A stretch of DNA of 53,899 nt, taken from Syntrophaceae bacterium. GTDB taxonomy: Bacteria; Desulfobacterota; Desulfomonilia; Desulfomonilales; Desulfomonilaceae. A model generated the notes under the pieces. The model did no database searches. It was not told the origin of the DNA and worked only from the letters and a program-made list of their open reading frames with translations. The position numbers were made by a program, and so were the translations under genes. The DNA is taken from positions 1-53,899 of the forward strand of contig JARLHM010000055.1 in NCBI GenBank assembly GCA_031292235.1, in the 5' to 3' direction. This document shows positions 20,671 through 53,878 of this stretch, one piece after another (the stretch's first letter is position 1; every line of letters begins with the position of its first letter).

Positions 20671-20961
20671 GTGACGCTGTTCGGACGAGAATATAGTGTT
20701 CGGGGCCGTGGGTCCGGAGACTATATCGAGAGGCTTGTAGAGTTTATCAATTCCCGATCCGAAGAGATCAGGGGAAAATCAGGAGTTGTGACCACAATTG
20801 ATCTCGCGATTCTCACGTTGCTCAACATCACGGATGAGCTTTTTGAATGTAGACAGTCGATTTCAGAACAAATCGAGAAAACGGAGGAAGAAGATTACGG
20901 TCTCTTAAAACCCGGTGATTTGGGAGAGACTGATTTAAAAATTCCCCTGCGCGGTTCGTGA
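20671..20961 (+). CDS. zapA: cell division protein ZapA (start probably upstream at CTG 20599)
   Basis: TLFGREYSVRG...YIERLVEFINSRSEEI...TIDLAILTLLNITDELF matches the ZapA pattern. In-frame upstream codons (..RSVKV) look like part of the protein, but no ATG/GTG/TTG is present there. Confidence 0.8.
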   Translation: MTLFGREYSVRGRGSGDYIERLVEFINSRSEEIRGKSGVVTTIDLAILTLLNITDELFECRQSISEQIEKTEEEDYGLLKPGDLGETDLKIPLRGS

Positions 20962-20997
20962 GGGATAGAGAATTTTTGAGCCAACACTCGAAAATTG

Positions 20998-21202
20998 GGA
21001 ACTGAACCCGATTGTGGTGTGCAAGCCTACCGTTGAAGTAGGAAGCCTGAAACAACCGCTAGGATCCCACCTGGGAAACCAGGTTCAAAAGTTCTATTGC
21101 CACGGCCGACTGCGGGGGATAAAAACAACGTAGATTGCATTTTGCTTTACACCCTACAACCGGGATGTGCTACGAAGCCTCTGGATGGCAGTTCAGGGTT
21201 CC
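20998..21202 (+). ncRNA. ssrS: candidate structured ncRNA, possibly 6S RNA (ssrS)
   Basis: It lies in a 359-nt non-coding gap directly downstream of zapA, which is the classical ssrS position. By-eye closing helices: 20998-21007 with 21191-21202, 21008-20 with 21149-63, and 21021-35 with 21126-38. Internal GNRA hairpin at 21070-83. Ends are not defined. Confidence 0.35.
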
Positions 21203-37009: not shown

Positions 37010-37468
37010 CTAATTGTCCTCGTCATGAATTGGCATCCTGACCACTAGCACAGAACACTTGGCTCGGCGTAAAACCGCTTCCGCAACGCTGCCAAGAATC
37101 TGGTACCTAAAACCGGTCCAGCCATGTGTCCCCATAATGATTAGATCTACGCATTCCTTTTTCGCAAAACTTAATATTTCGTCAGAAGGAGAGCCGATCC
37201 CAGTATGATAAGACGTCTGTATTCCGTGTTTTCTAAATTCTTGCGAAATTTCTTCGAGGTCCGCGTTAACTGGTTCTTTGACCTTTTCAATGATCTGTTG
37301 TTCATGAAATTTAAGTTTGGGCCGGTAAGCCTGAACAGGCCATGCGCCTATAACATGAATGATCCTGATAGACGCGCCCAAGGCTTTAGCGTAATCCAGC
37401 GCCCAAGATCGGGCAGCCTCGGCGTTCTTAGAAAAATCTTCACAGAAGAGTATCTTTTTAGGTACCAT
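37010..37468 (-). CDS. universal stress protein (UspA family)
   Basis: KKILFCEDFS...IIMGTHGWTGF...GSVAEAVLRRAKCSVLVV. ATG at 37468 lies 8 nt after GGAGG. The upstream 37 in-frame codons of the tracked ORF look non-coding. Confidence 0.85.
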   Translation of the reverse strand: MVPKKILFCEDFSKNAEAARSWALDYAKALGASIRIIHVIGAWPVQAYRPKLKFHEQQIIEKVKEPVNADLEEISQEFRKHGIQTSYHTGIGSPSDEILSFAKKECVDLIIMGTHGWTGFRYQILGSVAEAVLRRAKCSVLVVRMPIHDEDN

Positions 37469-37572
37469 TGGTGGCGACCTCCGTATGGGTTTGCTAAACG
37501 AGGCCCGAAATTCGGATAGCAAGTGAATGAATAGCGCTCTCGATCTGTTGCCTACACTCGGGCTGTTGGATC

Positions 37573-37601
37573 TTGACACCTCATTAGTTCTAAGATATTT
37601 A
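37573..37601 (+). promoter_or_regulatory. possible promoter for trp leader / trpE unit
   Basis: TTGACA (37573-78), 17-nt spacer, TATTTA. The -10 element is weak and it sits very close to the leader SD. Confidence 0.25.
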
Positions 37602-37625
37602 ATATAAAGGAGTCAACGAGTTACC

Positions 37626-37763
37626 GTGGAACAAACCCTTACAAAATTTGTTAGTAAACTTGAGCGATCTTCATTAACTAGTGTTCGTGAAACCGGTTTC
37701 TTGTTTTACTGGTGGCGCCATTCAACCGTGACGGTGTGGTCCGCCCTGGATTGCTCAGTTTAA
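37626..37763 (+). CDS. trpL: putative trp leader peptide (45 aa, tandem Trp codons)
   Basis: GTG start with AAGGAG 13 nt upstream. Peptide ..GFLFYWWRHSTVTVWSALDCSV, with UGG UGG at 37710-15 and a third UGG at 37737. It overlaps alternative hairpins and is followed by the terminator. Alternative TTG start at 37701. Confidence 0.55.
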   Translation: MEQTLTKFVSKLERSSLTSVRETGFLFYWWRHSTVTVWSALDCSV

Positions 37764-37789
37764 CTACTAATTGTAGATAGACAACAAGC

Positions 37790-37817
37790 CCCACCGTCAG
37801 AAGACGGTGGGTTTTTT
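37790..37817 (+). terminator. intrinsic terminator (attenuator) upstream of trpE
   Basis: CCCACCGUC (37790-98), AGAA loop, GACGGUGGG (37803-11), then UUUUUU. 25 nt before the trpE start. Confidence 0.8.
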
Positions 37818-37841
37818 GTTTCTGAAGAAAGGAATCAAATT

Positions 37842-39230
37842 GTGGCCTCGCTCAAAACCCTGTCGAAGGAATTACTGGCGGACATGGAGACGCCTGTTTC
37901 AAGCTATTTGAAACTGTGCACAGGCGAAGATGTTTCATTTCTCTTCGAAAGCAGCGAAGACGTTGAGAGCATAGGTCGTTATTCGATTATAGCCTGGGAC
38001 CCTCTGTTGTCTATAACACTTTCGGATGAAGGGACCAAAATCCAATCACACGGAGAGGTTTCATTAAGCTCTAAAGACGATTTTTTCACATCTGTGCGCA
38101 ACCTGATGGCTAGTATGGAGTGTGTCGATTCTCCCAAACTTCCATTTGTAGGATCGCTAGCTGGTTATGTTGGTTATGACGCCATAAGACTGATCGAAAA
38201 ACTTCCCAAGCCACTCCCTGGTAATCTGCCAACTGCTTACCTCTGCTATCCCTCTCAATTCGTGGTTTTCGATCACTTGTACAGGACAATCACGATATGC
38301 GCCATTGGAGAAAATGATACAGATTGCAGTGATAAACTACGCGGAATAGAATCAAAACTTGCCCGGAACTTAACCACTAGTGTTGGTAATGAGAAATTCT
38401 CCCTTGTGCGGCCTTCTCAGGAACGATTTGTCAATTCGGTTCTGAAGGCAAAGGAACACATACTCGACGGAGATATATTTCAGGTTGTTCTTTCCGATCA
38501 AATCATGGGGGAAATCAATGTCGACCCATTTGAGGTCTATCGATGGATGAGGGTGAACAGCCCATCCCCTTACATGTTTTTTTTGAAGCTCGGAGATCTG
38601 AAACTTGCGGGGGCTTCTCCCGAAACACTAGTCAAACTTATAAACGGCAAGGTATTGATAAGACCAATAGCGGGCACAAGGGGGCGTTCAGCGGACCCCA
38701 TAAAGGATAAAGCGCTTGAAAAGGAACTAATGGAATCGGAAAAGGAACGCGCCGAGCATGTCATGTTGGTTGACTTGGCAAGGAATGACGCCGGTCGTGT
38801 TTGCCGATATGGCTCTGTAACCGTTGACCCTTACATGATAGTTGAGCGCTATAGTCATGTAATGCACATTGTCTCCCAGGTTACAGGAGATTTACGCGAG
38901 GGTTTGGACGCATGGGACGCGTTTATAGCCGGTTTTCCTGCGGGCACGGTTTCCGGGGCGCCCAAAATTCGCGCGATGGAAATTATTGATGACCTTGAAA
39001 CCGAACCACGGGGGCCCTACGGAGGGGCCGTCGGCTACTGGGGACCAGGTCTAACGATGGACACCTGTATTGCAATACGGATGATCCAGTTTTATCAAAA
39101 CAAATTTGTTTTGCAGGCCGGCGCTGGGATTGTCGCTGATTCGTCCCCTGTTTTCGAATACGAGGAGATAATGAGAAAAGCGGCGCATGGAATAGCTTCT
39201 CTTCGAGCAGCCATGGGAGACATGTCATGA
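37842..39230 (+). CDS. trpE: anthranilate synthase component I
   Basis: 462 aa with LVDLARNDAGRV and GAVGYW motifs. GTG start 7 nt after AAAGGAA. Confidence 0.95.
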   Translation: MASLKTLSKELLADMETPVSSYLKLCTGEDVSFLFESSEDVESIGRYSIIAWDPLLSITLSDEGTKIQSHGEVSLSSKDDFFTSVRNLMASMECVDSPKLPFVGSLAGYVGYDAIRLIEKLPKPLPGNLPTAYLCYPSQFVVFDHLYRTITICAIGENDTDCSDKLRGIESKLARNLTTSVGNEKFSLVRPSQERFVNSVLKAKEHILDGDIFQVVLSDQIMGEINVDPFEVYRWMRVNSPSPYMFFLKLGDLKLAGASPETLVKLINGKVLIRPIAGTRGRSADPIKDKALEKELMESEKERAEHVMLVDLARNDAGRVCRYGSVTVDPYMIVERYSHVMHIVSQVTGDLREGLDAWDAFIAGFPAGTVSGAPKIRAMEIIDDLETEPRGPYGGAVGYWGPGLTMDTCIAIRMIQFYQNKFVLQAGAGIVADSSPVFEYEEIMRKAAHGIASLRAAMGDMS

Positions 39231-39814
39231 TACTTGTAATCGACAATTATGATTCATTCACGTTTAACGTTGTCCATGCGCTCGGAAAATTGGGAAAGCA
39301 AATTGAAGTTGTTCGTAATGATGAGATTACCGTCGATCAAATTGCCGATATAAGTCCCGAAGCGATCATAATATCTCCAGGTCCCGGTCGGCCTGAAGAC
39401 TCCGGGATTACATGCCCAACTATTACGAAGTACGCCGGTAAAATTCCAATACTGGGTGTCTGTCTTGGTCACCAGGCGATAGGTCAGGTTTTCGGAGCGA
39501 CGATTACGCGGGCCTTGCGGCCGGTTCACGGCAAAGTTACAGATATATTTCATGATTCTAAAGGGCTGTTCCGAGGCTTGCCGAATCCATTTCCTGCCGC
39601 CCGATATCACTCTTTGATTGTGCTTAAGGAAACTGTGGCGCCGCCACTTACAGTTACAGCCCAAACCTCCGAAGGAGAAGTAATGGGTCTGCGAAGTTCG
39701 GAACTCAAACTCGAAGGGGTTCAATTTCACCCTGAATCAATAGCTACGGCCCAGGGAATGGACCTCTTCAGAAACTTTCTCGACATTTATGTGGTTAAGG
39801 AAAACCAGCGATGA
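39227..39814 (+). CDS. trpG: anthranilate synthase component II (glutamine amidotransferase)
   Basis: ILVIDNYDSFTFN, GVCLGHQ, HPES triad. 4-nt overlap with trpE. Confidence 0.95.
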   Translation: MILVIDNYDSFTFNVVHALGKLGKQIEVVRNDEITVDQIADISPEAIIISPGPGRPEDSGITCPTITKYAGKIPILGVCLGHQAIGQVFGATITRALRPVHGKVTDIFHDSKGLFRGLPNPFPAARYHSLIVLKETVAPPLTVTAQTSEGEVMGLRSSELKLEGVQFHPESIATAQGMDLFRNFLDIYVVKENQR

Positions 39815-41064
39815 GGCTTTCAGGGACGTTCAAACCACCAGGTGACAAATCGATATCCCATCGCATTGCCCTATTGTCGCTGTTGGCTAAGGGGGAATGT
39901 GTTGTTTCGAATTATTCCACAGCTCAAGACTGTATGACGTCTGTACATGCCGTGAACGCGCTTGGAGGAGGAGCTGTTTTCTCAGGAGAGGACCTGAATC
40001 TGTCAGCTAATGGTCGTATCTTGACAGACTCAGTGGATGTTGATTGCGGCAATTCCGGCACAACCATGAGATTACTGATGGGGGTCCTCGCCGGAGCTTC
40101 AGGTCGATTCATTCTTTGGGGAGATGATTCTCTGATGAAACGGCCCATGGAACGTGTGGCAAAACCGCTGCGCAGTATGGGCGCAAATATTTTTTGCGCT
40201 CCAAATGGAACACCACCTGTTAACATAGAGGGCTCAAAATTGTGCGGGATTGATTACAGATTACCGGTGGCGAGCGCCCAGTTGAAAAGCGCTGTTTTGA
40301 TCGCCGGTGTTCAAGCTGAAGGTCTGACGAGGATTACTGAGCCTGTAAAAAGTCGAGACCACACTGAACACATGCTGGGAATGTTCGGAGCTGACATCTA
40401 TTTTGAATCCGGGGCATGGTGTGTTCGAAAATCGTTGATGGAACTCCCCTCAGCTTTCGGTGTTCCCGGAGATCCATCTTCCGCCGCGTTCTTCCTATGT
40501 GGAGCGGCGATGCTTGATGGAAGTGAAGTTACAGCAGAAGGGATCCTGCTGAATCCGACCAGAGTAAAATTTCTTGACAAGCTCAAAGAGATGGGCGCGC
40601 AAACTGAGATCCACATTAAGGGGGATTCTCCCGAACCATGGGGAAGCGTCAAGTCTAGTCATTCAGGAAAACTTTCGTCGTGTAAAGTGACATCTGAAGA
40701 ACTACCACTGCTTGTTGATGAAGTTCCCATATTGGCGCTGCTGGCTACTCAAGCGCACGGCGTTTCAGTTTTTCACGAAATTGGGGAACTGAGAATCAAG
40801 GAATCCGACCGTGTCGCCGCCCTAGTTTCAGAATTGGGTAAACTGGGCGCTAAGCTTGAGATTGATGGTCCAAATCTCCTAATTTATGGACCAACGAAAT
40901 TTAAGGCGACTGATGGATTGGAAAGCTTTGGCGACCACCGAATAGCAATGACCTTAGCCATAGCCCGTGGGCTGACTGATGAGAATGTCCCAATCCGTGA
41001 CATGTCTTGCGTTTCAATTTCATATCCGGATTTTTTCGAAACTTTGAGGGAATTGACTCTATGA
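39811..41064 (+). CDS. aroA: 3-phosphoshikimate 1-carboxyvinyltransferase (EPSP synthase)
   Basis: PGDKSISHR, CGNSGTTMRLL, KESDR, HRIAM. Confidence 0.95.
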   Translation: MRLSGTFKPPGDKSISHRIALLSLLAKGECVVSNYSTAQDCMTSVHAVNALGGGAVFSGEDLNLSANGRILTDSVDVDCGNSGTTMRLLMGVLAGASGRFILWGDDSLMKRPMERVAKPLRSMGANIFCAPNGTPPVNIEGSKLCGIDYRLPVASAQLKSAVLIAGVQAEGLTRITEPVKSRDHTEHMLGMFGADIYFESGAWCVRKSLMELPSAFGVPGDPSSAAFFLCGAAMLDGSEVTAEGILLNPTRVKFLDKLKEMGAQTEIHIKGDSPEPWGSVKSSHSGKLSSCKVTSEELPLLVDEVPILALLATQAHGVSVFHEIGELRIKESDRVAALVSELGKLGAKLEIDGPNLLIYGPTKFKATDGLESFGDHRIAMTLAIARGLTDENVPIRDMSCVSISYPDFFETLRELTL

Positions 41065-41882
41065 AAGTTTACTGTGTGATTGGAGACCAGCGGGTTGAAA
41101 GGTCTCTTTCGCCAATTATGCATAATTCAGTTTTTTCAGTATATGGCATGAACTGTAAGTATGTTGCGTTCAGAATAGAACCTGCCGATCTGGAAAACGC
41201 CGTTTTGGGAATAAGAGCTTTGAATATTTCAGGAGTTAACGTTACTGTCCCTCATAAGGAAATCATCATTCCGTTTCTTGATGGGCTTTCGGATCGTGCC
41301 CGGGCCATCGGCGCGGTTAATACAATAGTTCGTGATGGGCCAACCCTGATAGGTCACAATACCGACGCAGGAGGGTTTGGAGACTTGCTCGACAAATACA
41401 GGGTTTCTCCCAATAATTCGGATGTGGTGATATTAGGGGCGGGTGGCGCCACGAGAGCAGTGCTTCGTTCTTTCATCGAGCGTGGCTATGAAAAGGTTAG
41501 TGTAATCAACAGAACGTACAAAAAGAGCTTAGATCTGACGGCTAAACTGGGCGGCTTGGCAATCCCTCCGGAAAATACTACGGAAGCTCTGCGAAAAGCC
41601 ACTCTGCTGATAAACACAACAAGCGTGTCAGAGGTGGCCGAAGGTCCATCTTTCATGGAAATCTTCTCCAATGAGGCTCGGCTCGATAAACTTAGGTTGG
41701 TCATAGATATAAACTACGGGCGTAAAACCAATTTTTGGGCCTCCCTGGCGGAGAATAGCGGAGCCGGCTTTACTGATGGTTTATATATGTTGGCCGCGCA
41801 GGCTAGACGGAGTTTCCGTTTGTGGACAGGAGAAGAGCCGGCAATCGAAAATTTTCTTGATCCTATAGGTTTAGTTGAATGA
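41061..41882 (+). CDS. aroE: shikimate dehydrogenase
   Basis: SLSPIMHN, NVTVPHK, GAGGATRAV. ATG 41061 overlaps the aroA stop (ATGA). The tracked ORF starts 54 nt earlier, inside aroA. Confidence 0.92.
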   Translation: MKVYCVIGDQRVERSLSPIMHNSVFSVYGMNCKYVAFRIEPADLENAVLGIRALNISGVNVTVPHKEIIIPFLDGLSDRARAIGAVNTIVRDGPTLIGHNTDAGGFGDLLDKYRVSPNNSDVVILGAGGATRAVLRSFIERGYEKVSVINRTYKKSLDLTAKLGGLAIPPENTTEALRKATLLINTTSVSEVAEGPSFMEIFSNEARLDKLRLVIDINYGRKTNFWASLAENSGAGFTDGLYMLAAQARRSFRLWTGEEPAIENFLDPIGLVE

Positions 41883-43447
41883 TGGACAATATATACATTA
41901 CCGGTTTCATGGGAGCGGGTAAATCTACGATAGGTAAGGCCCTGTCTAAAATCTTGAAGCGGGGCTTTGTCGACATGGACGAGGCGATCTCAAGAAAGAG
42001 CGGAATGTCAGTCAGGGCCTATTTTGAAGAATTGGGGGAGAATAATTTCCGTGAAGCTGAAACAAAATTACTCCAGAAGATTGCGTCAGGAAAATCGCTG
42101 GTTGTATCCACTGGAGGCGGCGCGCCAACTAGAGTCATGAATCGAAAGATTATGCGTGACTCCGGTAAGATTGTTCACCTTAACGCAACACTGGATGAAT
42201 GTTTGAGCCGCCTGGGCGTTGAAACAGATTCGGTGCGGCCATTGTGGAAGGATCGGGCCTCAGTTTCAGCGCTATACAATAGCCGTCTCGAAGCATATGC
42301 TGATTGTGACATTAAAGTTGACGCTTTGAACAGGTCGGCTGAGGAATTGGCGTGGGAAATTTGCGAAAAACTTCAACCGCGACGATCAATTGACGTTCAA
42401 CTAGGCGGAGTGAGTCATCCTCTGGTTTTTGCATGGAGGTCCCAGGAAGAAGTCTCCATGTTTTCAAAGCCTTCCAAAACATTCGTAGTAACCGATAAAC
42501 ATTTATCCAGATTGCATATGGAGCGTTACTCGAGCGCGCTGGGTGACGCTACTGTAGTGGCCCTGAAAGCGGGAGAGCGCAGCAAATCGCTTGGTAGCGC
42601 CAGACGTCTGTACGAAGCAATGTTAAAGGATCGACTTGGTAGAGATGGTCTTGTGGTGGCGATTGGTGGTGGTGTTATTACTGATTTAGGCGCGTTCGTG
42701 GCTTCAACTTACAAACGAGGTGTCCCGTTTATTTTAGTTTCAACCTCTCTCGTGGGTTGTGTTGACGCTGCAATCGGAGGTAAAGCCGCTGTTGACCTGA
42801 ATGAGGTAAAAAACCCGGTAGGTTGTTTCGCTGCTCCCTCTGCGGTATTCCTGGATCTCAGGGCCCTGAGCACTCTGCCTGGAAAATGTGTTTCAGAGGG
42901 CCTGGTCGAGGCTTACAAAACTGGACTTGTAGCTGATCCATCCCTTGCGGAGTTGATAGAAAGCAATATTGACTCACTTCTACGAGCAGACCTGCTCACT
43001 TTGGCCGAGGTCGTCCGTTTGTCCGCTTCAGCGAAAGCGGACATTGTAGGAAAGGATTTCAAGGAAAGTGGCCTTAGGCGTATTCTGAACTTTGGCCACA
43101 CTTACGGCCATGCTGTCGAGAGCTTCAACAACTATCGATTGAGCCACGGAGTATCTGTCGCTTTAGGAATGATGGTGGCGGTGGTTATTTCTGAAAACCG
43201 GGGCTTGTTGAGACAGAAACTGTCGATCGGGATTCAGACAACATTGAGAAATTTCGTTCAAAGCCCCACTGTTATGCCTTCCGTCAATGAAGCCTGGCGA
43301 ATCATGATGAATGATAAAAAGAACCGTAACGGGCGAGTAACCTTTGTATTGCTTGCGGAACTCGGTTCTCCCATCTGTGTGGATGATCTGCGGCCGGAAG
43401 AACTAGATGCCGCCATTCGAAGTGTGGAAGGTTTGAAAAATGGGTAG
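41879..43447 (+). CDS. aroKB: bifunctional shikimate kinase / 3-dehydroquinate synthase fusion
   Basis: N-terminal GFMGAGKSTIG (AroK, about 170 aa). C-terminal GGGVITDLGAFVASTYKRGVPFILVSTSL...GHTYGHAVE (AroB). Confidence 0.92.
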   Translation: MMDNIYITGFMGAGKSTIGKALSKILKRGFVDMDEAISRKSGMSVRAYFEELGENNFREAETKLLQKIASGKSLVVSTGGGAPTRVMNRKIMRDSGKIVHLNATLDECLSRLGVETDSVRPLWKDRASVSALYNSRLEAYADCDIKVDALNRSAEELAWEICEKLQPRRSIDVQLGGVSHPLVFAWRSQEEVSMFSKPSKTFVVTDKHLSRLHMERYSSALGDATVVALKAGERSKSLGSARRLYEAMLKDRLGRDGLVVAIGGGVITDLGAFVASTYKRGVPFILVSTSLVGCVDAAIGGKAAVDLNEVKNPVGCFAAPSAVFLDLRALSTLPGKCVSEGLVEAYKTGLVADPSLAELIESNIDSLLRADLLTLAEVVRLSASAKADIVGKDFKESGLRRILNFGHTYGHAVESFNNYRLSHGVSVALGMMVAVVISENRGLLRQKLSIGIQTTLRNFVQSPTVMPSVNEAWRIMMNDKKNRNGRVTFVLLAELGSPICVDDLRPEELDAAIRSVEGLKNG

Positions 43448-44501
43448 TATCTATGGCCGATTCTTTCGCTTGTCAACATTCGGCGAATCTCATGGTCCTG
43501 CTGTAGGTGTCGTCGTAGAAGGGGTCCCAGCCGGGCTGGCGTTAACCTCGGAAATCATCCAGTCAGAACTGGATAAACGCAAACCCGGTTCCAGTCAGTA
43601 TGTCTCACAGCGTTCAGAATCGGATACGGTAGAAATTCTTTCCGGTGTGGCAAATGGGAAGACGCTCGGATCTCCCGTGGCAATGCTGGTCAGGAACACT
43701 AACCAGCGATCCAAGGATTATTCAGCCATCGCGGACCTTTTCCGCCCTGGTCATGCGGATTACACGTATTTCAGGAAATATCTAACTGCTCCGCAGCCGG
43801 GTGGAGGTCGATCATCAGGTCGGGAAACAGTAGGTCGGGTTGCTGCTGGGGCTATAGCTAAAGTCATGCTTAGGCAGGTTGGTTTGCATGTAAACGCTTA
43901 TACAGTAAAGATCGGAGGGATAGTCGCTCATAATGTGGATATTGATTTTGCTCTTACTAATCCATTGAGGTGCGCGGACCCGGGTGTTGCTGAAGCAATG
44001 GGAAACGAGGTTAAATTGGCTGTTTCCGAAGGCGATTCGATAGGTGGGATAATTGAGGTCACGGCCGAAGGTGTGCCCCCGGGGCTCGGGGACCCTGTTT
44101 TCGATAAACTTGACGCCTCACTGGCCGCCGCGTTGCTTTCAATAGGTGGAGTAAAGGGTTTAGAGTTTGGTGAAGGGTTCCGTTCCGCTGGTTTGAGAGG
44201 GTCTCAGCACAACGACGGGATGACTTCAGCCGGTTTTTTGTCCAATCACTCTGGCGGCATCCTGGGTGGGATCTCTACCGGACAATCTATAATAATGAGG
44301 TTAGCCATAAAACCCACGGCGTCTATTTCTATTGAGCAGAAAACAATAGACTTGAAGGGTCAGGACCGACTGATCTCCGTCAAAGGAAGACACGACCCCT
44401 GTCTGTGCCCGAGGATTGCGCCAGTCGCTGAGGCGATGACAGCAATAACGCTTGCGGACGCGTGGCTTGCGGACAGGGCCGTTAGAGGAATAAGCGAATG
44501 A
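43440..44501 (+). CDS. aroC: chorismate synthase
   Basis: [34 protein letters not shown]. Confidence 0.95.
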
Positions 44502-44944
44502 AATTATTTGTGGTAAATGGGCCGAACCTGAACATGCTCGGTAAGCGGGAACCGGAATTGTATGGGTCCAAGACCCTGTCGGAAATAGAAAATGACCTTG
44601 TCGAACTTGGCGCCGAGTTGGGTTTCAAAATTGAATGTTTTCAATCAAACTTTGAAGGTGAAATAGTTTCGATCATTCAATCTGCCGGGACCCTGGCTTG
44701 TGGAGTGATTCTAAACGCGGGCGCGTACACTCACACAAGTATTGCAATCCGCGACGCTGTCTTGTGTTGCTCTGTTCCGGTAGTGGAGGTTCACCTCACC
44801 AACCCTCATGGCCGAGAGTTATTTCGCAGGAGATCGCTACTATCGGACGTTTGCAGGGGAGTAATAGCAGGTTTTGGGTGGCGTTCATACTGCTTGGCGC
44901 TAATGTGGTTTGCAAACTATCGCAGTGATCCCGGGCTGTTATAG
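44498..44944 (+). CDS. aroQ: type II 3-dehydroquinate dehydratase
   Basis: VVNGPNLNMLGKREPELYG, NAGAYTHTSIAIRDA, EVHLTN. Confidence 0.95.
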   Translation: MKLFVVNGPNLNMLGKREPELYGSKTLSEIENDLVELGAELGFKIECFQSNFEGEIVSIIQSAGTLACGVILNAGAYTHTSIAIRDAVLCCSVPVVEVHLTNPHGRELFRRRSLLSDVCRGVIAGFGWRSYCLALMWFANYRSDPGLL

Positions 44945-44972
44945 AATCATGTTCAGTGCGCTTAATAAAATG

Positions 44973-45001
44973 TTGACAATGTTTTCACGCTGCTGTAGAA
45001 A
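44973..45001 (+). promoter_or_regulatory. candidate promoter for the aromatic leader / aroF-pheA-tyrA unit
   Basis: TTGACA (44973-78), 17-nt spacer, TAGAAA (44996-45001). About 20 nt before the leader SD. Confidence 0.4.
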
Positions 45002-45032
45002 TAGACTATAGCATAAAGCAAGGAAACGGTTC

Positions 45033-45149
45033 ATGGGTTCACAATTTAATAATCTCGCAAAAGTTGATGGCCAGATCGAAAACGGGGCATACTTTTATTT
45101 TTGGCGATTTTATTATTTCGTCTGTCTACCCGTGTCCGGAGGGCTATAA
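45033..45149 (+). CDS. putative aromatic-amino-acid leader peptide (38 aa)
   Basis: AAGGA 8 nt before the ATG. Peptide MGSQFNNLAKVDGQIENGAYFYFWRFYYFVCLPVSGGL. 9 of 10 consecutive codons (45090-45119) are Tyr, Phe or Trp. Followed by alternative helices and two terminators. Confidence 0.7.
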   Translation: MGSQFNNLAKVDGQIENGAYFYFWRFYYFVCLPVSGGL

Positions 45150-45178
45150 AGAGTAACAGAATTTAGACGGAAAGCAAC

Positions 45179-45225
45179 AAGGCCATGGGTAGACAGCGAA
45201 AGCGCCCATGGCCTTTATTATTTTT
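45179..45225 (+). terminator. attenuator hairpin 1 / terminator T1
   Basis: AAGGCCAUGGG (45179-89) pairs with CCCAUGGCCUU (45205-15). The 15-nt loop contains a GAAA mini-hairpin. Followed by UAUUAUUUUU. Confidence 0.7.
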
Positions 45226-45268
45226 GGGCCTTGGGCGTAAAAAAAACCCCCAAGGCCCTTTTCGTTTC
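45226..45268 (+). terminator. attenuator terminator T2
   Basis: GGGCCUUGGG (45226-35) pairs with CCCAAGGCCC (45249-58), A-rich loop, then UUUUCGUUU. 18 nt before the aroF ATG. Confidence 0.75.
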
Positions 45269-45285
45269 CGAAAGGAGCGTTTCAG

Positions 45286-46179
45286 ATGATTAAATCTCGC
45301 GCCAGCGTGTCCAGAGTAGAAGACCCAGTTTCGCCGTCAACGATGGAGCTTAAAAGACCGCCTACCAGGAAAGGGTTCATAAGTCGTGACTATCAACGGG
45401 AAGATACGGTAGTTAGGGTGGGTGAGGCCATTATAGGTGGAGGTTCATTTGCGGTAATAGCCGGGCCGTGCTCTGTAGAATCCCTGCAGCAACTTGTGGA
45501 TACCGCATTCGCCGTCAAAGAAGCAGGGGCTGTCGTGTTGCGGGGTGGGGCTTTCAAACCCAGAACCAGCCCTTATAGTTTTCAAGGATTGGGCGAGGAA
45601 GGTCTGAAGCTGCTGTCGTTAGCCCGGGAAGTGACTGGAATGCCGGTAGTTACTGAAGTTATGGATACTGCGGATGTGGCGCTTGTCGAAGATTATGCTG
45701 ATATGCTACAGATCGGCGCTCGTAATATTCAGAATTTTTCTCTCCTCAAAAAAGTTGGAAAGTGTCAAAAGCCGATCATTCTTAAAAGGGGATTGATGTC
45801 AACCATCGATGAGTTGCTATCATCCGCGGAGTATATTCTCGCGGCGGGAAACTCACAGGTCATTCTATGCGAAAGAGGGATACGGACTTTTGAAACGGCG
45901 ACCAGGAACACTCTCGATCTTAGCGCTGTTTGTGTCCTCAAAGAACGAACCCATTTGCCCGTGATTGTAGATCCGAGCCACGCTGTAGGTGTGAGACGTT
46001 TCGTTCAACCGTTGTCTCGGGCAGCGATGGCCGTGGGGGCTGACGGAATTATGGTCGAAGTTCATTGTTCCCCTGAAACCGCTCTATGTGACGGTGAACA
46101 ATCTCTACGACCTGAGGATTTTTGTAACCTCATGAAAAACCTGGCGATCATTGGCGAGGCCATGAGCCTTTTGGTTTGA
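45286..46179 (+). CDS. aroF: 3-deoxy-7-phosphoheptulonate (DAHP) synthase, type I-beta
   Basis: [41 protein letters not shown] 8 nt upstream of the ATG. Confidence 0.92.
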
Positions 46180-46214
46180 AATGTTTTGAGAAGCAAAATC
46201 AGAAAGAGGCCCTG

Positions 46215-47360
46215 ATGCGGTTATCTGAAACACTTAGAATTGATGAGGCCCAAGGTAATACCAACCCCACCGGGATAGCCTCGATTCAAGGAATAAGAGA
46301 ACAAATTGATAATATCGACAAGGAATTATTACGACTAGTTAATCAGAGAGCTTTTCACGCGTTGAGCATCGCGGAATTGAGAAATTCAGCCAATATAACT
46401 AATTTCTCCCCTGAACGTGAACTCACGATAATTAAGTCTCTGTGTGATGCGAACGCCGGCCCGTTGTCAAAATCTTCTGTAGCCAATGTGTTTTCCGAAA
46501 TAATTTCAGCCTGCCGCAGCGCCAAACGTCCATTGAGGGTGGCCTTTCTAGGGCCTGAGGGGACGTTCAGTCACCTGGCGGCGTTACGACGATTTGGCAA
46601 TTCGGCGCTTTATCTTCCCGAAGTTTCGATTGATGACGTCTTTGACGCAGTTGAAAAAGGAGCGGCGGATGTCGGGATCACACCGGTGGAAAATTCTTCA
46701 GAAGGCGCTGTTAGCGCAACCATGGATCAGTTTATAGATTCCAATTTGTTGATCTGCGGGGAAATCTTCTCAAGAATACGACATGTGCTCATGTCGACGG
46801 AATCCTCGTTGGACAACATTTCCGTGGTTTATTCTCACCCGCAGGCCCTCAATCAATGTCGCAACTGGTTACGAGTGAATTTGCCCGCGGCTTCTCTGAT
46901 GCCGGAATCAAGTACCGCAGAGTCCGCGCGTATTGCGCTTGCCAGGCCCGGGGCAGCGGCAATAGGTAACGAGGTTACAGCCACACAGCATAACCTGAAA
47001 ATCCTTGCCTCGGACATACAGGATAGCCTTAGTAACACTACACGATTCCTGCTGTTGGGGAAAAACAGAAGCGCTCCGACTGGTCTGGACAGGACATCTC
47101 TAGTTTTCGCCGCCGCTCATATCCCTGGTTCACTTCATAAGGCGCTTGAGCATTTTGCGAAGAGATCTGTAAACCTCACTCGAATTGAATCCCGTCCCAT
47201 GAAAAACAAAAACTGGGAGTATTTTTTCTTCGTGGATATCGAAGGTCATCAGGAATCGCCAATGGTCAAAGAAGCGATTGAAAGCCTACGTTCTGACGTG
47301 GAATTTCTGAAACTTCTTGGTTCCTATCCAATAGGCGATATCGATTCATCAAATTTGTAG
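46215..47360 (+). CDS. pheA: bifunctional chorismate mutase / prephenate dehydratase (P-protein)
   Basis: CM domain (IRE QIDNIDKELLRLVNQR), PDT domain (VAFLGPEGTFSH), ACT domain (TRIESRP). ATG 46215 lies 5 nt after AAGAGG. The ORF is also open from TTG 46176, overlapping the aroF stop. Confidence 0.92.
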   Translation: MRLSETLRIDEAQGNTNPTGIASIQGIREQIDNIDKELLRLVNQRAFHALSIAELRNSANITNFSPERELTIIKSLCDANAGPLSKSSVANVFSEIISACRSAKRPLRVAFLGPEGTFSHLAALRRFGNSALYLPEVSIDDVFDAVEKGAADVGITPVENSSEGAVSATMDQFIDSNLLICGEIFSRIRHVLMSTESSLDNISVVYSHPQALNQCRNWLRVNLPAASLMPESSTAESARIALARPGAAAIGNEVTATQHNLKILASDIQDSLSNTTRFLLLGKNRSAPTGLDRTSLVFAAAHIPGSLHKALEHFAKRSVNLTRIESRPMKNKNWEYFFFVDIEGHQESPMVKEAIESLRSDVEFLKLLGSYPIGDIDSSNL

Positions 47361-47389
47361 AGAGCGAGAGAAAGTATACGGTAAAGATA

Positions 47390-48253
47390 GTGAGCGACAC
47401 AGACTTTAGGAAAGCTAATGTTTGCATAGTAGGCGGAAAGGGTCGTATGGGCCGCTGGTTTGTATCGCTATTTCGTGAAGCCGGCATGGATACGATCGTC
47501 TCGGATTTAGATGATTCTCCAATTTCTGAAAAGTCTGTGGCTTCGTGTGACATTGTCCTTTTGGCGGTCCCGGTGACAGCGATCGAAGGTGTAATGAGAT
47601 CAATAGGACCGTTTATAAGATCCGACGCTCTGCTAATGGACATATCCTCTATTAAGCGAGACCCTATAAATTTTATGCTCAAATATTCACAGAGCGAAGT
47701 CATAGGAACGCACCCTTTGTTCGGCCCATCCACGGCTTCTCTTGTAGATCAGGTGGTGTTTCTTTGCCCGTCACGAACCGAGAGATGGATAAAACCCTTT
47801 AGAAATTTTCTGGAAGAGCGGGGCGCAAAGATTACCGAAATCACCCCTGATGGGCACGACAAACTCATGGCGTGTTTCCAAACCTTGAGACATGTCATGC
47901 TTACGTCTTTGGGGCAGACATTGATAAGATTGGGTTTCGACTCACATTGTCAGGTTGAGGGTACAGGGGCGTGGTTTGAGCAACTGCTGGCAATGATGTG
48001 TCATCAGTTCGAACAGCCTTCAGAACTTTATGCTGATCTTGCTATTGGAAACTCCTATTCGTCTGAGACACTGAAACTGTTCCGCAACAGTTTAAACGAA
48101 CTAGCTAATCTTGTTTCTACAGGAAACAGAGATGGACTTGTTAGCGCCATGGATGAAGTGGCTCAATTCTGCGCGACCGAAGCAACATCAAATGGTTCCG
48201 CATGGGGTTGGTGGCGCGACATAGGAGGAGATTCCCGGCACATCGAGGTCTGA
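47390..48253 (+). CDS. tyrA: prephenate dehydrogenase, with Trp-rich C-terminal tail
   Basis: GTG start. VCIVGGKGRMGRWF NAD motif, GTHPLFGP, and a helical dimerisation domain. The tail is ..SAWGWWRDIGGDSRHIEV. Confidence 0.9.
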   Translation: MSDTDFRKANVCIVGGKGRMGRWFVSLFREAGMDTIVSDLDDSPISEKSVASCDIVLLAVPVTAIEGVMRSIGPFIRSDALLMDISSIKRDPINFMLKYSQSEVIGTHPLFGPSTASLVDQVVFLCPSRTERWIKPFRNFLEERGAKITEITPDGHDKLMACFQTLRHVMLTSLGQTLIRLGFDSHCQVEGTGAWFEQLLAMMCHQFEQPSELYADLAIGNSYSSETLKLFRNSLNELANLVSTGNRDGLVSAMDEVAQFCATEATSNGSAWGWWRDIGGDSRHIEV

Positions 48254-48280
48254 TTAAGCCCTTAAGACAACAGACAACAA

Positions 48281-48328
48281 AAGGCCGTGAATCTCAAAGC
48301 CGAGAGGATTCACGGCCTTTTCTTTTTT
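48281..48328 (+). terminator. intrinsic terminator between tyrA and trpD (attenuator)
   Basis: AAGGCCGUGAAUC (48281-93) pairs with GAUUCACGGCCUU (48307-19), 13 bp, followed by UUCUUUUUU. 28 nt after the tyrA stop and 25 nt before the trpD ATG. Confidence 0.85.
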
Positions 48329-48352
48329 AACGAATAGGATTTGGAGGAAACC

Positions 48353-49390
48353 ATGATTAAGGATTCAATAGAAAAAGCGGTTTCAGGAAATGACATCTCC
48401 GAAGCCCAGATGATGGAGACCATGGAAGAGATAATGGAAGGCCGCGCAACTCAAGCTCAGATCGGCGCCCTCCTGATAGCCTTGAGGATGAAAGGCGAGA
48501 CAGTTGAAGAAATTACTGCCGCTGCAAAAGTGATGAGATCCAAGAGTTCTCACATACCTTACAAATGCGAGGAAGGAGAAATTCTCATCGACACATGCGG
48601 TACTGGAGGCGATTGCTCCAACACCTTTAATGTTTCAACTACTGCGGCGTTTGTGGTTGCAGGCGCTGGAGTAAAGGTCGCTAAACACGGCAATCGGTCC
48701 GTCTCAAGCAAATGCGGCAGCGCGGACTTGATGGAAGCCCTGGGATTGCCGTTGGACCTTTCCCCAGAGCAAGTCGCCTTGTGCATACGGCAAGTAGGTA
48801 TCGGTTTCCTGTTCGCTCCCCTTTTACACACCGCCATGAAATACGCTATCGGTCCCAGACGCGAGTTGGGGCTTCGGACGATATTCAACCTTTTGGGACC
48901 GTTAACTAATCCTGCCGGAGCGCAGGTTCAGTTGATGGGGGTATACGATAATCAGATGGTCAAACCTTTAACTCATGTGATAGCAAGACTTGGGGCCAAA
49001 AAGGCCTTTGTCGTTCATGGTCACGGCGGACTGGATGAAATCAGCCTTAGTGGGCCAACGCTAGTTGGATTGGCCGAGAATGGCGAAGTTTCATTCAGAT
49101 ATATGGAACCATCGGATTTTGGGTTGAAAGGTAATGCTTCGGTAGCAATCGGTGGTGGAAACGCGCAGGAGAACGCTGCCATTACCAAATCTGTGCTAAA
49201 CGGAGATTCGGGACCGTATAGAGATGTGGTTCTCTTGAATGCAGCCGCCGCTTTGGTGGCGGCTGATCGAGGCAAGACCCTCATGGAGGGGATGGCTTTG
49301 TCAACTTTTTCAATTGATTCAGGCGCCGCGTTGAACAAATTGGACGAACTGATCAAATTCGCTAAGTCTCTGAAAGATGGAGGACACTAA
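48353..49390 (+). CDS. trpD: anthranilate phosphoribosyltransferase
   Basis: DTCGTGGD, KHGNRSVSS, NLLGPLTNP. ATG 48353 follows GGAGGAAACC. The tracked ORF starts at TTG 48341, inside the SD. Confidence 0.95.
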   Translation: MIKDSIEKAVSGNDISEAQMMETMEEIMEGRATQAQIGALLIALRMKGETVEEITAAAKVMRSKSSHIPYKCEEGEILIDTCGTGGDCSNTFNVSTTAAFVVAGAGVKVAKHGNRSVSSKCGSADLMEALGLPLDLSPEQVALCIRQVGIGFLFAPLLHTAMKYAIGPRRELGLRTIFNLLGPLTNPAGAQVQLMGVYDNQMVKPLTHVIARLGAKKAFVVHGHGGLDEISLSGPTLVGLAENGEVSFRYMEPSDFGLKGNASVAIGGGNAQENAAITKSVLNGDSGPYRDVVLLNAAAALVAADRGKTLMEGMALSTFSIDSGAALNKLDELIKFAKSLKDGGH

Positions 49391-53803: not shown

Positions 53804-53878
53804 GCCGAGGTAGCTCAGTGGTAGAGCAGATGATTCGTAATCATCAGGCCGTGGGTTCAACTCCCATCCTCGGCTCCA
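53804..53878 (+). tRNA. tRNA-Thr (anticodon CGU), CCA encoded
   Basis: Cloverleaf folded by hand. Acceptor GCCGAGG/CCUCGGC, D arm GCUC-AGUGGUA-GAGC, anticodon arm GAUGA-UUCGUAA-UCAUC, 5-nt variable loop, T arm GUGGG-UUCAACU-CCCAU, discriminator U, then CCA. Confidence 0.93.

Follow-up and report, generated by a model that had tools for sequence, protein, structure and literature searches.

A putative tryptophan attenuator at the tyrA-trpD junction of an aromatic supraoperon, with the C-terminal extension of TyrA as its candidate leader peptide

Introduction

In its classical form, attenuation is taught as something that belongs to short leader ORFs at the 5' ends of operons. The locus described here raises the question of whether the sensor of such a switch can instead be the end of a full-length enzyme gene lying in the middle of an operon. 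The whole stretch of DNA analysed (53,899 nt, hereafter the window) carries an aromatic amino-acid supraoperon on its plus strand, which begins with a leader and continues through trpE, trpG, aroA, aroE, aroKB, aroC and aroQ. After aroQ there is a gap of 340 nt followed by aroF, pheA and tyrA, and a further gap of 99 nt separates tyrA from trpD, trpC, trpF, trpB and trpA. An earlier note on this DNA had read the last codons of tyrA as the leader peptide of a Trp attenuator gating trpDCFBA. The computational tests named there, namely the state of TyrA orthologues that lack trpD, the conservation of the pairing between segments 2 and 3 and the competition between the two folds, all support such a reading at the level of sequence. 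We consider it quite probable that the tyrA-trpD junction is a ribosome-mediated, Trp-responsive transcription attenuator with the C-terminal extension of TyrA as its leader peptide. It is also fairly likely, in our view, that the enzyme has acquired a C-terminal extension whose sole role is to serve as leader peptide for the attenuator of the next gene, which would mean that a sensor can be embedded in a full-length, mid-operon ORF.

The tyrA tail and the terminator ahead of trpD

The features of the junction are as follows.

47390-48253, plus strand: tyrA (prephenate dehydrogenase), an ORF of 287 codons with complete Pfam PDH_N and PDH_C domains
48155-48202, plus strand: variable linker joining the enzyme fold to the putative regulatory tail (residues 256-271); mean pairwise nucleotide identity 0.36 in the aligned codons directly ahead of the Trp cluster
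48203-48214, plus strand: putative sensor codons UGG GGU UGG UGG (W-G-W-W), codons 272-275; at least two Trp codons in 14/14 trpD-linked relatives
48228-48239, plus strand: segment 2, GAGAUUCCCGGC, the candidate 5' strand of the antiterminator, lying within codons G-D-S-R-H and nearly identical to the 3' arm of the terminator
48251-48253, plus strand: tyrA stop codon, 11 nt past segment 2 (11-15 nt in relatives), with the terminator stem 27 nt further on
48281-48295, plus strand: segment 3, the terminator 5' arm, of which 48284-48295 is the alternative partner of segment 2
48304-48319, plus strand: segment 4, the terminator 3' arm (GAG-GAUUCACGGCCUU)
48318-48328, plus strand: U-run UUUUCUUUUUU of the intrinsic terminator
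48353-49390, plus strand: trpD, the first gene of trpDCFBA, with a Shine-Dalgarno sequence GGAGGA at 48343-48348

The prephenate dehydrogenase domains recognised by Pfam extend no further than residue 255, leaving residues 256-287 (32 residues) as an appendix beyond the enzyme fold. The C-terminus reads AWGWWRDIGGDSRHIEV before the stop (...A-W-G-W-W-R-D-I-G-G-D-S-R-H-I-E-V-stop), and the UGG codons at 48203, 48209 and 48212 are all in the tyrA frame; these residues, the three UGG positions and the stop at 48251 were given exactly by the earlier note. Its statement that GGU UGG UGG CGC (48206-48217) matches the regulatory core of E. coli trpL also proved correct, since the same 12 nt, GGUUGGUGGCGC, can be read in E. 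coli K-12 trpL (NC_000913). Within the window, UGGUGGCGC of the tyrA tail is found again, as had been claimed, at 37710-37718 in the stand-alone leader ORF ahead of trpE. The Trp codons of the tail belong to the full-length 287-codon tyrA and not to a short ORF with its own start, and no stop codon intervenes in any of the 14 relatives compared below.

The 13-bp terminator with U-tract that had been reported ahead of trpD is present. Its stem is formed by AAGGCCGUGAAUC (48281-48293) and GAUUCACGGCCUU (48307-48319), is lengthened by UC/GAG and is followed by UUUUCUUUUUU up to 48328; the predicted energy is -22.7 to -25.1 kcal/mol, varying with the flanking bases included. A simple terminator scan with a loop limit of 8 nt missed this hairpin for the sole reason that its loop is longer than that. 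The tyrA-trpD gap measures 99 nt, with 24 nt between the U-run and the trpD AUG at 48353. No promoter for trpD was predicted near the part of the gap 3' of the terminator, for which 24 nt is too short. Since only these 24 nt separate the U-run from the AUG, all trpD transcripts must cross the terminator.

Conservation of the module and its linkage to trpD

The comparison set comprised the tyrA 3' junctions of 14 relatives with trpD downstream, their TyrA identity to that of the window ranging from 97% to 49%. The closest genomes are uncultured MAGs labelled Syntrophaceae or Desulfomonilaceae, and all examples of the tail come from one clade that forms a single cluster at 50% identity. Three further sequences stood outside the full-module comparison, these being L005 and L021, which end before the full module, and P0013, with the TyrA tail WGWRDDKGGGSRHMEV. 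A Trp-codon cluster (WGWW, WGW or WWW), the element GAUUCNCGGC and the terminator arms GCCGUGAAUC and GAUUCACGGC are kept together in 14/14 trpD-linked relatives; in L024 the terminator arm is the G·U variant GGUUCACGGC. Mean pairwise nucleotide identity is 0.79 in the Trp-cluster block, 0.92 in segment 2 and 0.95-0.96 in the terminator arms, and it is 0.36 in the linker before the Trp codons, 0.45 in the spacer from stop to terminator and 0.44 in the hairpin loop. This mosaic of conserved and drifting blocks follows the parts predicted by the attenuator model. Spacing is also conserved across the 14 sequences, with 12-18 nt from the last UGG to the segment 2 core (GAUUC), 11-15 nt from segment 2 to the stop and 27-34 nt from the stop to the stem, and the conserved spacings of the tail are comparable to those of E. 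coli trpL.

The earlier note had held that a W-rich tail in TyrA orthologues not followed by trpD would speak against an attenuator. In the four relatives where tyrA has no trpD downstream (L011, L012, L017 and L025) there is neither a Trp tail nor a terminator, the gene after tyrA being a TPR/lipase gene in the first three and a transporter in L025. Relics were found only in L010 and L016. In L010 the trpD remnant is frameshifted and comprises only residues 1-148 of 345; UAG stands in place of the first UGG of the cluster, the codons that follow mostly differ from those of the closest intact relative, segment 2 has decayed to GUAAUUCUCGGCGC and the terminator has gained one mismatch. L016 has no trpD and no terminator, and a faint relic, GGCUGGCGGCGG...GGUGAUUCUCGAC, is all that is left. 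Among 149 other TyrA-family representatives (at most 43% identity) the DSRH motif was found in none, and W-x-W within the last 30 residues in one. The loss of trpD in the tail-less clade may have been a single event. In L009 (2808-3087) trpD shows an apparent frameshift near codons 70-78 next to an intact attenuator module; the sequence is a short MAG contig and an assembly error is possible.

Two competing RNA folds

As the earlier note had claimed, segment 2 (48228-48239) nearly copies the terminator 3' arm and can pair with 48284-48295 over 11 bp with one C/U mismatch, a duplex of -17.1 kcal/mol. Of 7657 other stretches of 51 nt in the window, no more than 0.85% pair equally well with the segment 3 arm. 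The consensus fold of the alignment is the 2:3 helix when segment 4 is left out and the terminator when segment 4 is included. The stalled ribosome was modelled with the last UGG in the A site and the RNA free from +14, which for the window gives -29.1 kcal/mol for the antiterminator conformer and -27.3 kcal/mol for that of the terminator. When the antiterminator energy is subtracted from the terminator energy, again with segment 2 free, the 14 sequences give values of +2 to -10 kcal/mol, the two folds lying within 3 kcal/mol of each other in 9/14, and the estimated direct-path barrier to refolding is 9-18 kcal/mol. Once the ribosome is placed at the stop codon, the fold of lowest energy is the terminator in 14/14. 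E. coli trpL, handled identically, gave -15.6 kcal/mol for the antiterminator and -14.0 to -18.3 kcal/mol for the terminator, which is comparable.

The terminator stem is 100% paired across the 14 sequences and the 2:3 complementarity is invariant in a 9-bp core in 14/14; the pairing on which the earlier note relied is both conserved and, when segment 2 is free, usually close to the terminator in energy. Covariation is almost nil in these sequences, with one compensatory pair in the terminator and none in the 2:3 helix. It is uninformative because the helices scarcely vary, and such invariance is to be expected since one strand pairs with two near-identical partners and is also coding. The structural case therefore rests on conservation. 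All four bases (C, G, A and U) occur at the free position N of GAUUCNCGGC, and that pair is therefore not under selection. The absence of a convincing 1:2 hairpin, already remarked upon in the earlier note, is borne out; the anti-antiterminator or pause hairpin reaches a weak -11.5 kcal/mol in the window alone and only -3.4 kcal/mol, with a different shape, in the consensus of the alignment. Within 48247-48274 a small inner helix, GGUCU/AGAC, could close the antiterminator loop, and AGAC and GUCU are present in most relatives. L009 has a different and stronger inner hairpin in this loop.

These folds bear on the foremost alternative, namely that the junction is a constitutive, partly leaky terminator which sets the ratio of aro/tyrA to trpDCFBA transcripts, with segment 2 tuning the leak regardless of Trp and no sensing of Trp at all. 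The closeness of the two folds in energy in most sequences makes a fixed partial read-through physically plausible, and the lack of a conserved 1:2 hairpin and of covariation is in keeping with it. We nevertheless regard this alternative as improbable, since it leaves unexplained why two to three Trp codons lie 12-18 nt before segment 2 in 14/14 sequences, amid a linker that drifts freely, and why a Trp codon turned into a stop once trpD had decayed in L010. Trp sensing is furthermore suggested by GGUUGGUGGCGC, which is identical in E. coli trpL and in the leader that precedes trpE in this operon.

Selection on the RNA

The sequence WGWWRD-GGDSRH-EV is conserved among the TyrA relatives as an amino-acid motif also, as would be expected if the Trp-rich tail were a feature of the TyrA protein, such as a regulatory or interaction peptide, next to an ordinary operon-internal terminator, the likeness of segment 2 to the terminator arm being a by-product. 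The choice of codons argues strongly against this. Among pairs of sequences with the same residue, codons are identical in 679/788 cases (86%) over the last 16 codons, compared with 5984/11784 (51%) over the rest of tyrA, and the last 16 codons rank first in synonymous conservation of all 16-codon windows in the gene. The Arg codon in segment 2 is always CGG, a codon that accounts for 8% of Arg elsewhere in these tyrA genes. In L006 one nucleotide has been lost after the Trp cluster and before segment 2, so that the peptide now reads ..SAEIPGILMSD (..WGWWRDSAEIPGILMSD), yet GGAGAUUCCCGGCA and the terminator are kept despite being read in another frame. Since L006 has changed the peptide and kept the nucleotides, selection must act on the RNA and not on the peptide. 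The tail also lies outside the Pfam domains, is absent from other TyrA representatives and vanishes together with trpD. Given that synonymous sites are so much more conserved here than in the body of the enzyme and that a rare CGG is fixed, we hold a protein function of the tail to be very improbable. It seems that a leader peptide has been fused to the C-terminus of the enzyme, with selection on the mRNA rather than on the protein tail.

Control of the terminator in trans, by a TRAP-like protein, a tRNA (T-box) or released trpE-leader RNA, is just as improbable, having nothing specific in its favour beyond the GAG triplets in AUAGGAGGAGAU, while Rfam gave no match to a T-box or anything else even when the thresholds were permissive, the TRAP version would have only an adjacent UAG-GAG-GAG at 48222-48230 in place of a spaced array of about 11 (9-11 (G/U)AG, 2-3 nt apart), and the (G/U)AG triplets are lost in L006. 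No Rfam Trp_leader, T-box or other cis-regulatory model was found at the junction, either at gathering thresholds over the whole window or with E values up to 5 over 37400-48500. A plasmid collection searched with the junction DNA gave no match.

Proposed mechanism

The sequences show elements that are selectively conserved as RNA and linked to trpD, together with two folds that compete; from these we infer the ribosome positions, the kinetics and the Trp response of the following model. The lead ribosome would follow RNA polymerase along tyrA. With charged tRNA-Trp plentiful, it would cross segment 2 and proceed to the stop at 48251, keeping the G+C-rich 3' part of segment 2 covered. Segments 3 and 4 would emerge meanwhile and form the 13-bp terminator, and transcription would stop at the U-run without reaching trpD. 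Under Trp scarcity, a ribosome stalled at 48203-48214 would have its leading edge about 13 nt further on and would not quite reach segment 2. The latter would then be able to pair with segment 3 as soon as this is made, no terminator would form and trpDCFBA would be transcribed.

Without a conserved 1:2 hairpin, RNA that carries no ribosome should by default allow read-through, and termination would be expected only while a ribosome traverses segment 2 as segments 3 and 4 emerge. Such a default is in keeping with a sensor located in the last codons of a constantly translated ORF. The earlier note had supposed that a ribosome at the stop covers segment 2. In the model the terminator does win in 14/14 sequences with the ribosome there, but the covering itself holds only in part, as only the four bases at the 3' end of segment 2 would be covered by a ribosome parked at the stop. 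With Trp in excess, termination would therefore have to rely on kinetics or on trailing ribosomes. The model further requires that the lead ribosome is still following the polymerase closely once at least 3 kb of the operon have been translated, which we assume to be the case in these uncultured bacteria.

Relation to known attenuators

The proposed element shares with E. coli trpL the clustered UGG codons, including the identical 12 nt, an antiterminator strand whose start lies about 13 nt past the final Trp codon, an intrinsic terminator that excludes the antiterminator and whose U-run comes directly before a trp structural gene, and comparable fold energies. It differs in that the putative sensor consists of codons 272-275 of a 287-codon enzyme gene in the middle of an operon rather than of a short stand-alone ORF, and in that, without a conserved 1:2 hairpin, the ribosome-free default should be read-through and not termination. 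Unlike the trpL family it has no match to the Rfam Trp_leader model.

The B. subtilis aromatic supraoperon contains an internal trp attenuator under the control of TRAP, a Trp-activated RNA-binding protein that binds to (G/U)AG repeats. The logic would be the same here, with a Trp-specific termination checkpoint within a longer aromatic unit so that transcripts started upstream do not automatically express trp, although there is no (G/U)AG repeat array at the tyrA-trpD junction. At E. coli rph-pyrE, UTP is sensed via polymerase pausing, there are no sensor codons and no antiterminator, and the stop codon lies right beside the hairpin. The full RNase PH ORF is the translated leader of this intercistronic attenuator, and the arrival of the ribosome at the end of the ORF decides termination (PMC2784333). 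Like tyrA, rph is thus a complete enzyme ORF acting as translated leader with a terminator between it and the next gene (tyrA/trpD in our case). The stop codon here is 27-34 nt before the stem in 14/14 sequences, which is not close enough for a steric block by a terminating ribosome, and it is the codon cluster and the alternative helix that would do the work instead. The earlier note, for which an attenuator with its sensor codons in an upstream enzyme ORF was not known to have been described, overlooked rph-pyrE as a precedent for an enzyme ORF as leader (PMC2784333), although rph-pyrE has no sensor codons. Our literature search found no description of a Trp attenuator in the TyrA tail or at the end of any other ORF, its coverage being incomplete and such absence being no proof of novelty; Seliverstov et al. 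(2005) contains no such case and Rodionov et al. (2004) does not mention tryptophan.

If the model is correct, the switch can work only with the lead ribosome still close behind the polymerase after several kilobases. This implies that ribosome and polymerase stay near each other right to the end of a long translated unit, and the tyrA-tail element would be a natural read-out of long-range transcription-translation coupling. ORF-terminal attenuators may in that case be a wider class that has gone unnoticed because searches look only for short upstream ORFs. It would also follow that odd-looking conserved C-terminal tails can be RNA regulatory elements, which matters both for annotation and for dN/dS analyses.

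The other leaders of the operon and the role of the junction

Two further leader-peptide elements that are attenuator-like in sequence were found in the same operon, one before trpE and one before aroF.

37626-37763, plus strand: stand-alone trp leader ORF of 45 codons (..FYWWRHS.., ..FYWWRHSTVTVW..) ahead of trpE, containing UGGUGGCGC
37790-37811, plus strand: terminator of the trpE leader
About 44973, plus strand: promoter-like TTGACA ahead of aroF-pheA-tyrA
45033-45149, plus strand: aromatic leader ORF of 38 codons (..YFYFWRFYYF.., ..GAYFYFWRFYYF..; in full MGSQFNNLAKVDGQIENGAYFYFWRFYYFVCLPVSGGL)
45181-45225 and 45226-45265, plus strand: two tandem terminator-like hairpins before aroF

Both leaders (37626-37811 and 45033-45265) have the design proposed for the tyrA tail, in which the regulatory codons are followed, a few codons on, by a sequence nearly identical to the terminator 3' arm, the difference being that both are short independent ORFs in non-coding leaders; the one before trpE shares UGGUGGCGC with tyrA. 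The trpE leader region (37626-37811) has a fold z-score of -4.2, and this leader would put the common aro genes under Trp control too. Pairing of the trpE-leader RNA in trans with the junction, after the manner of rnTrpL in Sinorhizobium, was considered and rejected, the energy of -72.7 kcal/mol being no better than the shuffled mean of -75.2 kcal/mol.

Transcripts for the Phe/Tyr enzymes that start at about 44973 would not pass through the trpE leader, and one would then expect a second Trp checkpoint ahead of trpD. It is likely that the junction serves as this Trp-specific checkpoint for transcripts from the internal aromatic-leader promoter, which would explain how the Trp branch can be gated on its own even though the supraoperon is of mixed aromatic content and has an internal promoter.

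The promoter-like site, the leader ORF and the two hairpins before aroF are conserved in relatives, the leader in L006, L007, L010, L011 and L012. This aromatic leader has a central Trp (FYFWR, YYFWQ) where trpD follows tyrA and none in L010 and L011, in which trpD is lost or broken; in L012, which has no trpD, it still has one W. This pattern may reflect co-adaptation of the two checkpoints, the sample being small. Elsewhere in the window, the Rfam scan found a 6S RNA at 20941-21122 (115.7 bits) and a tRNA gene at 53804-53875.
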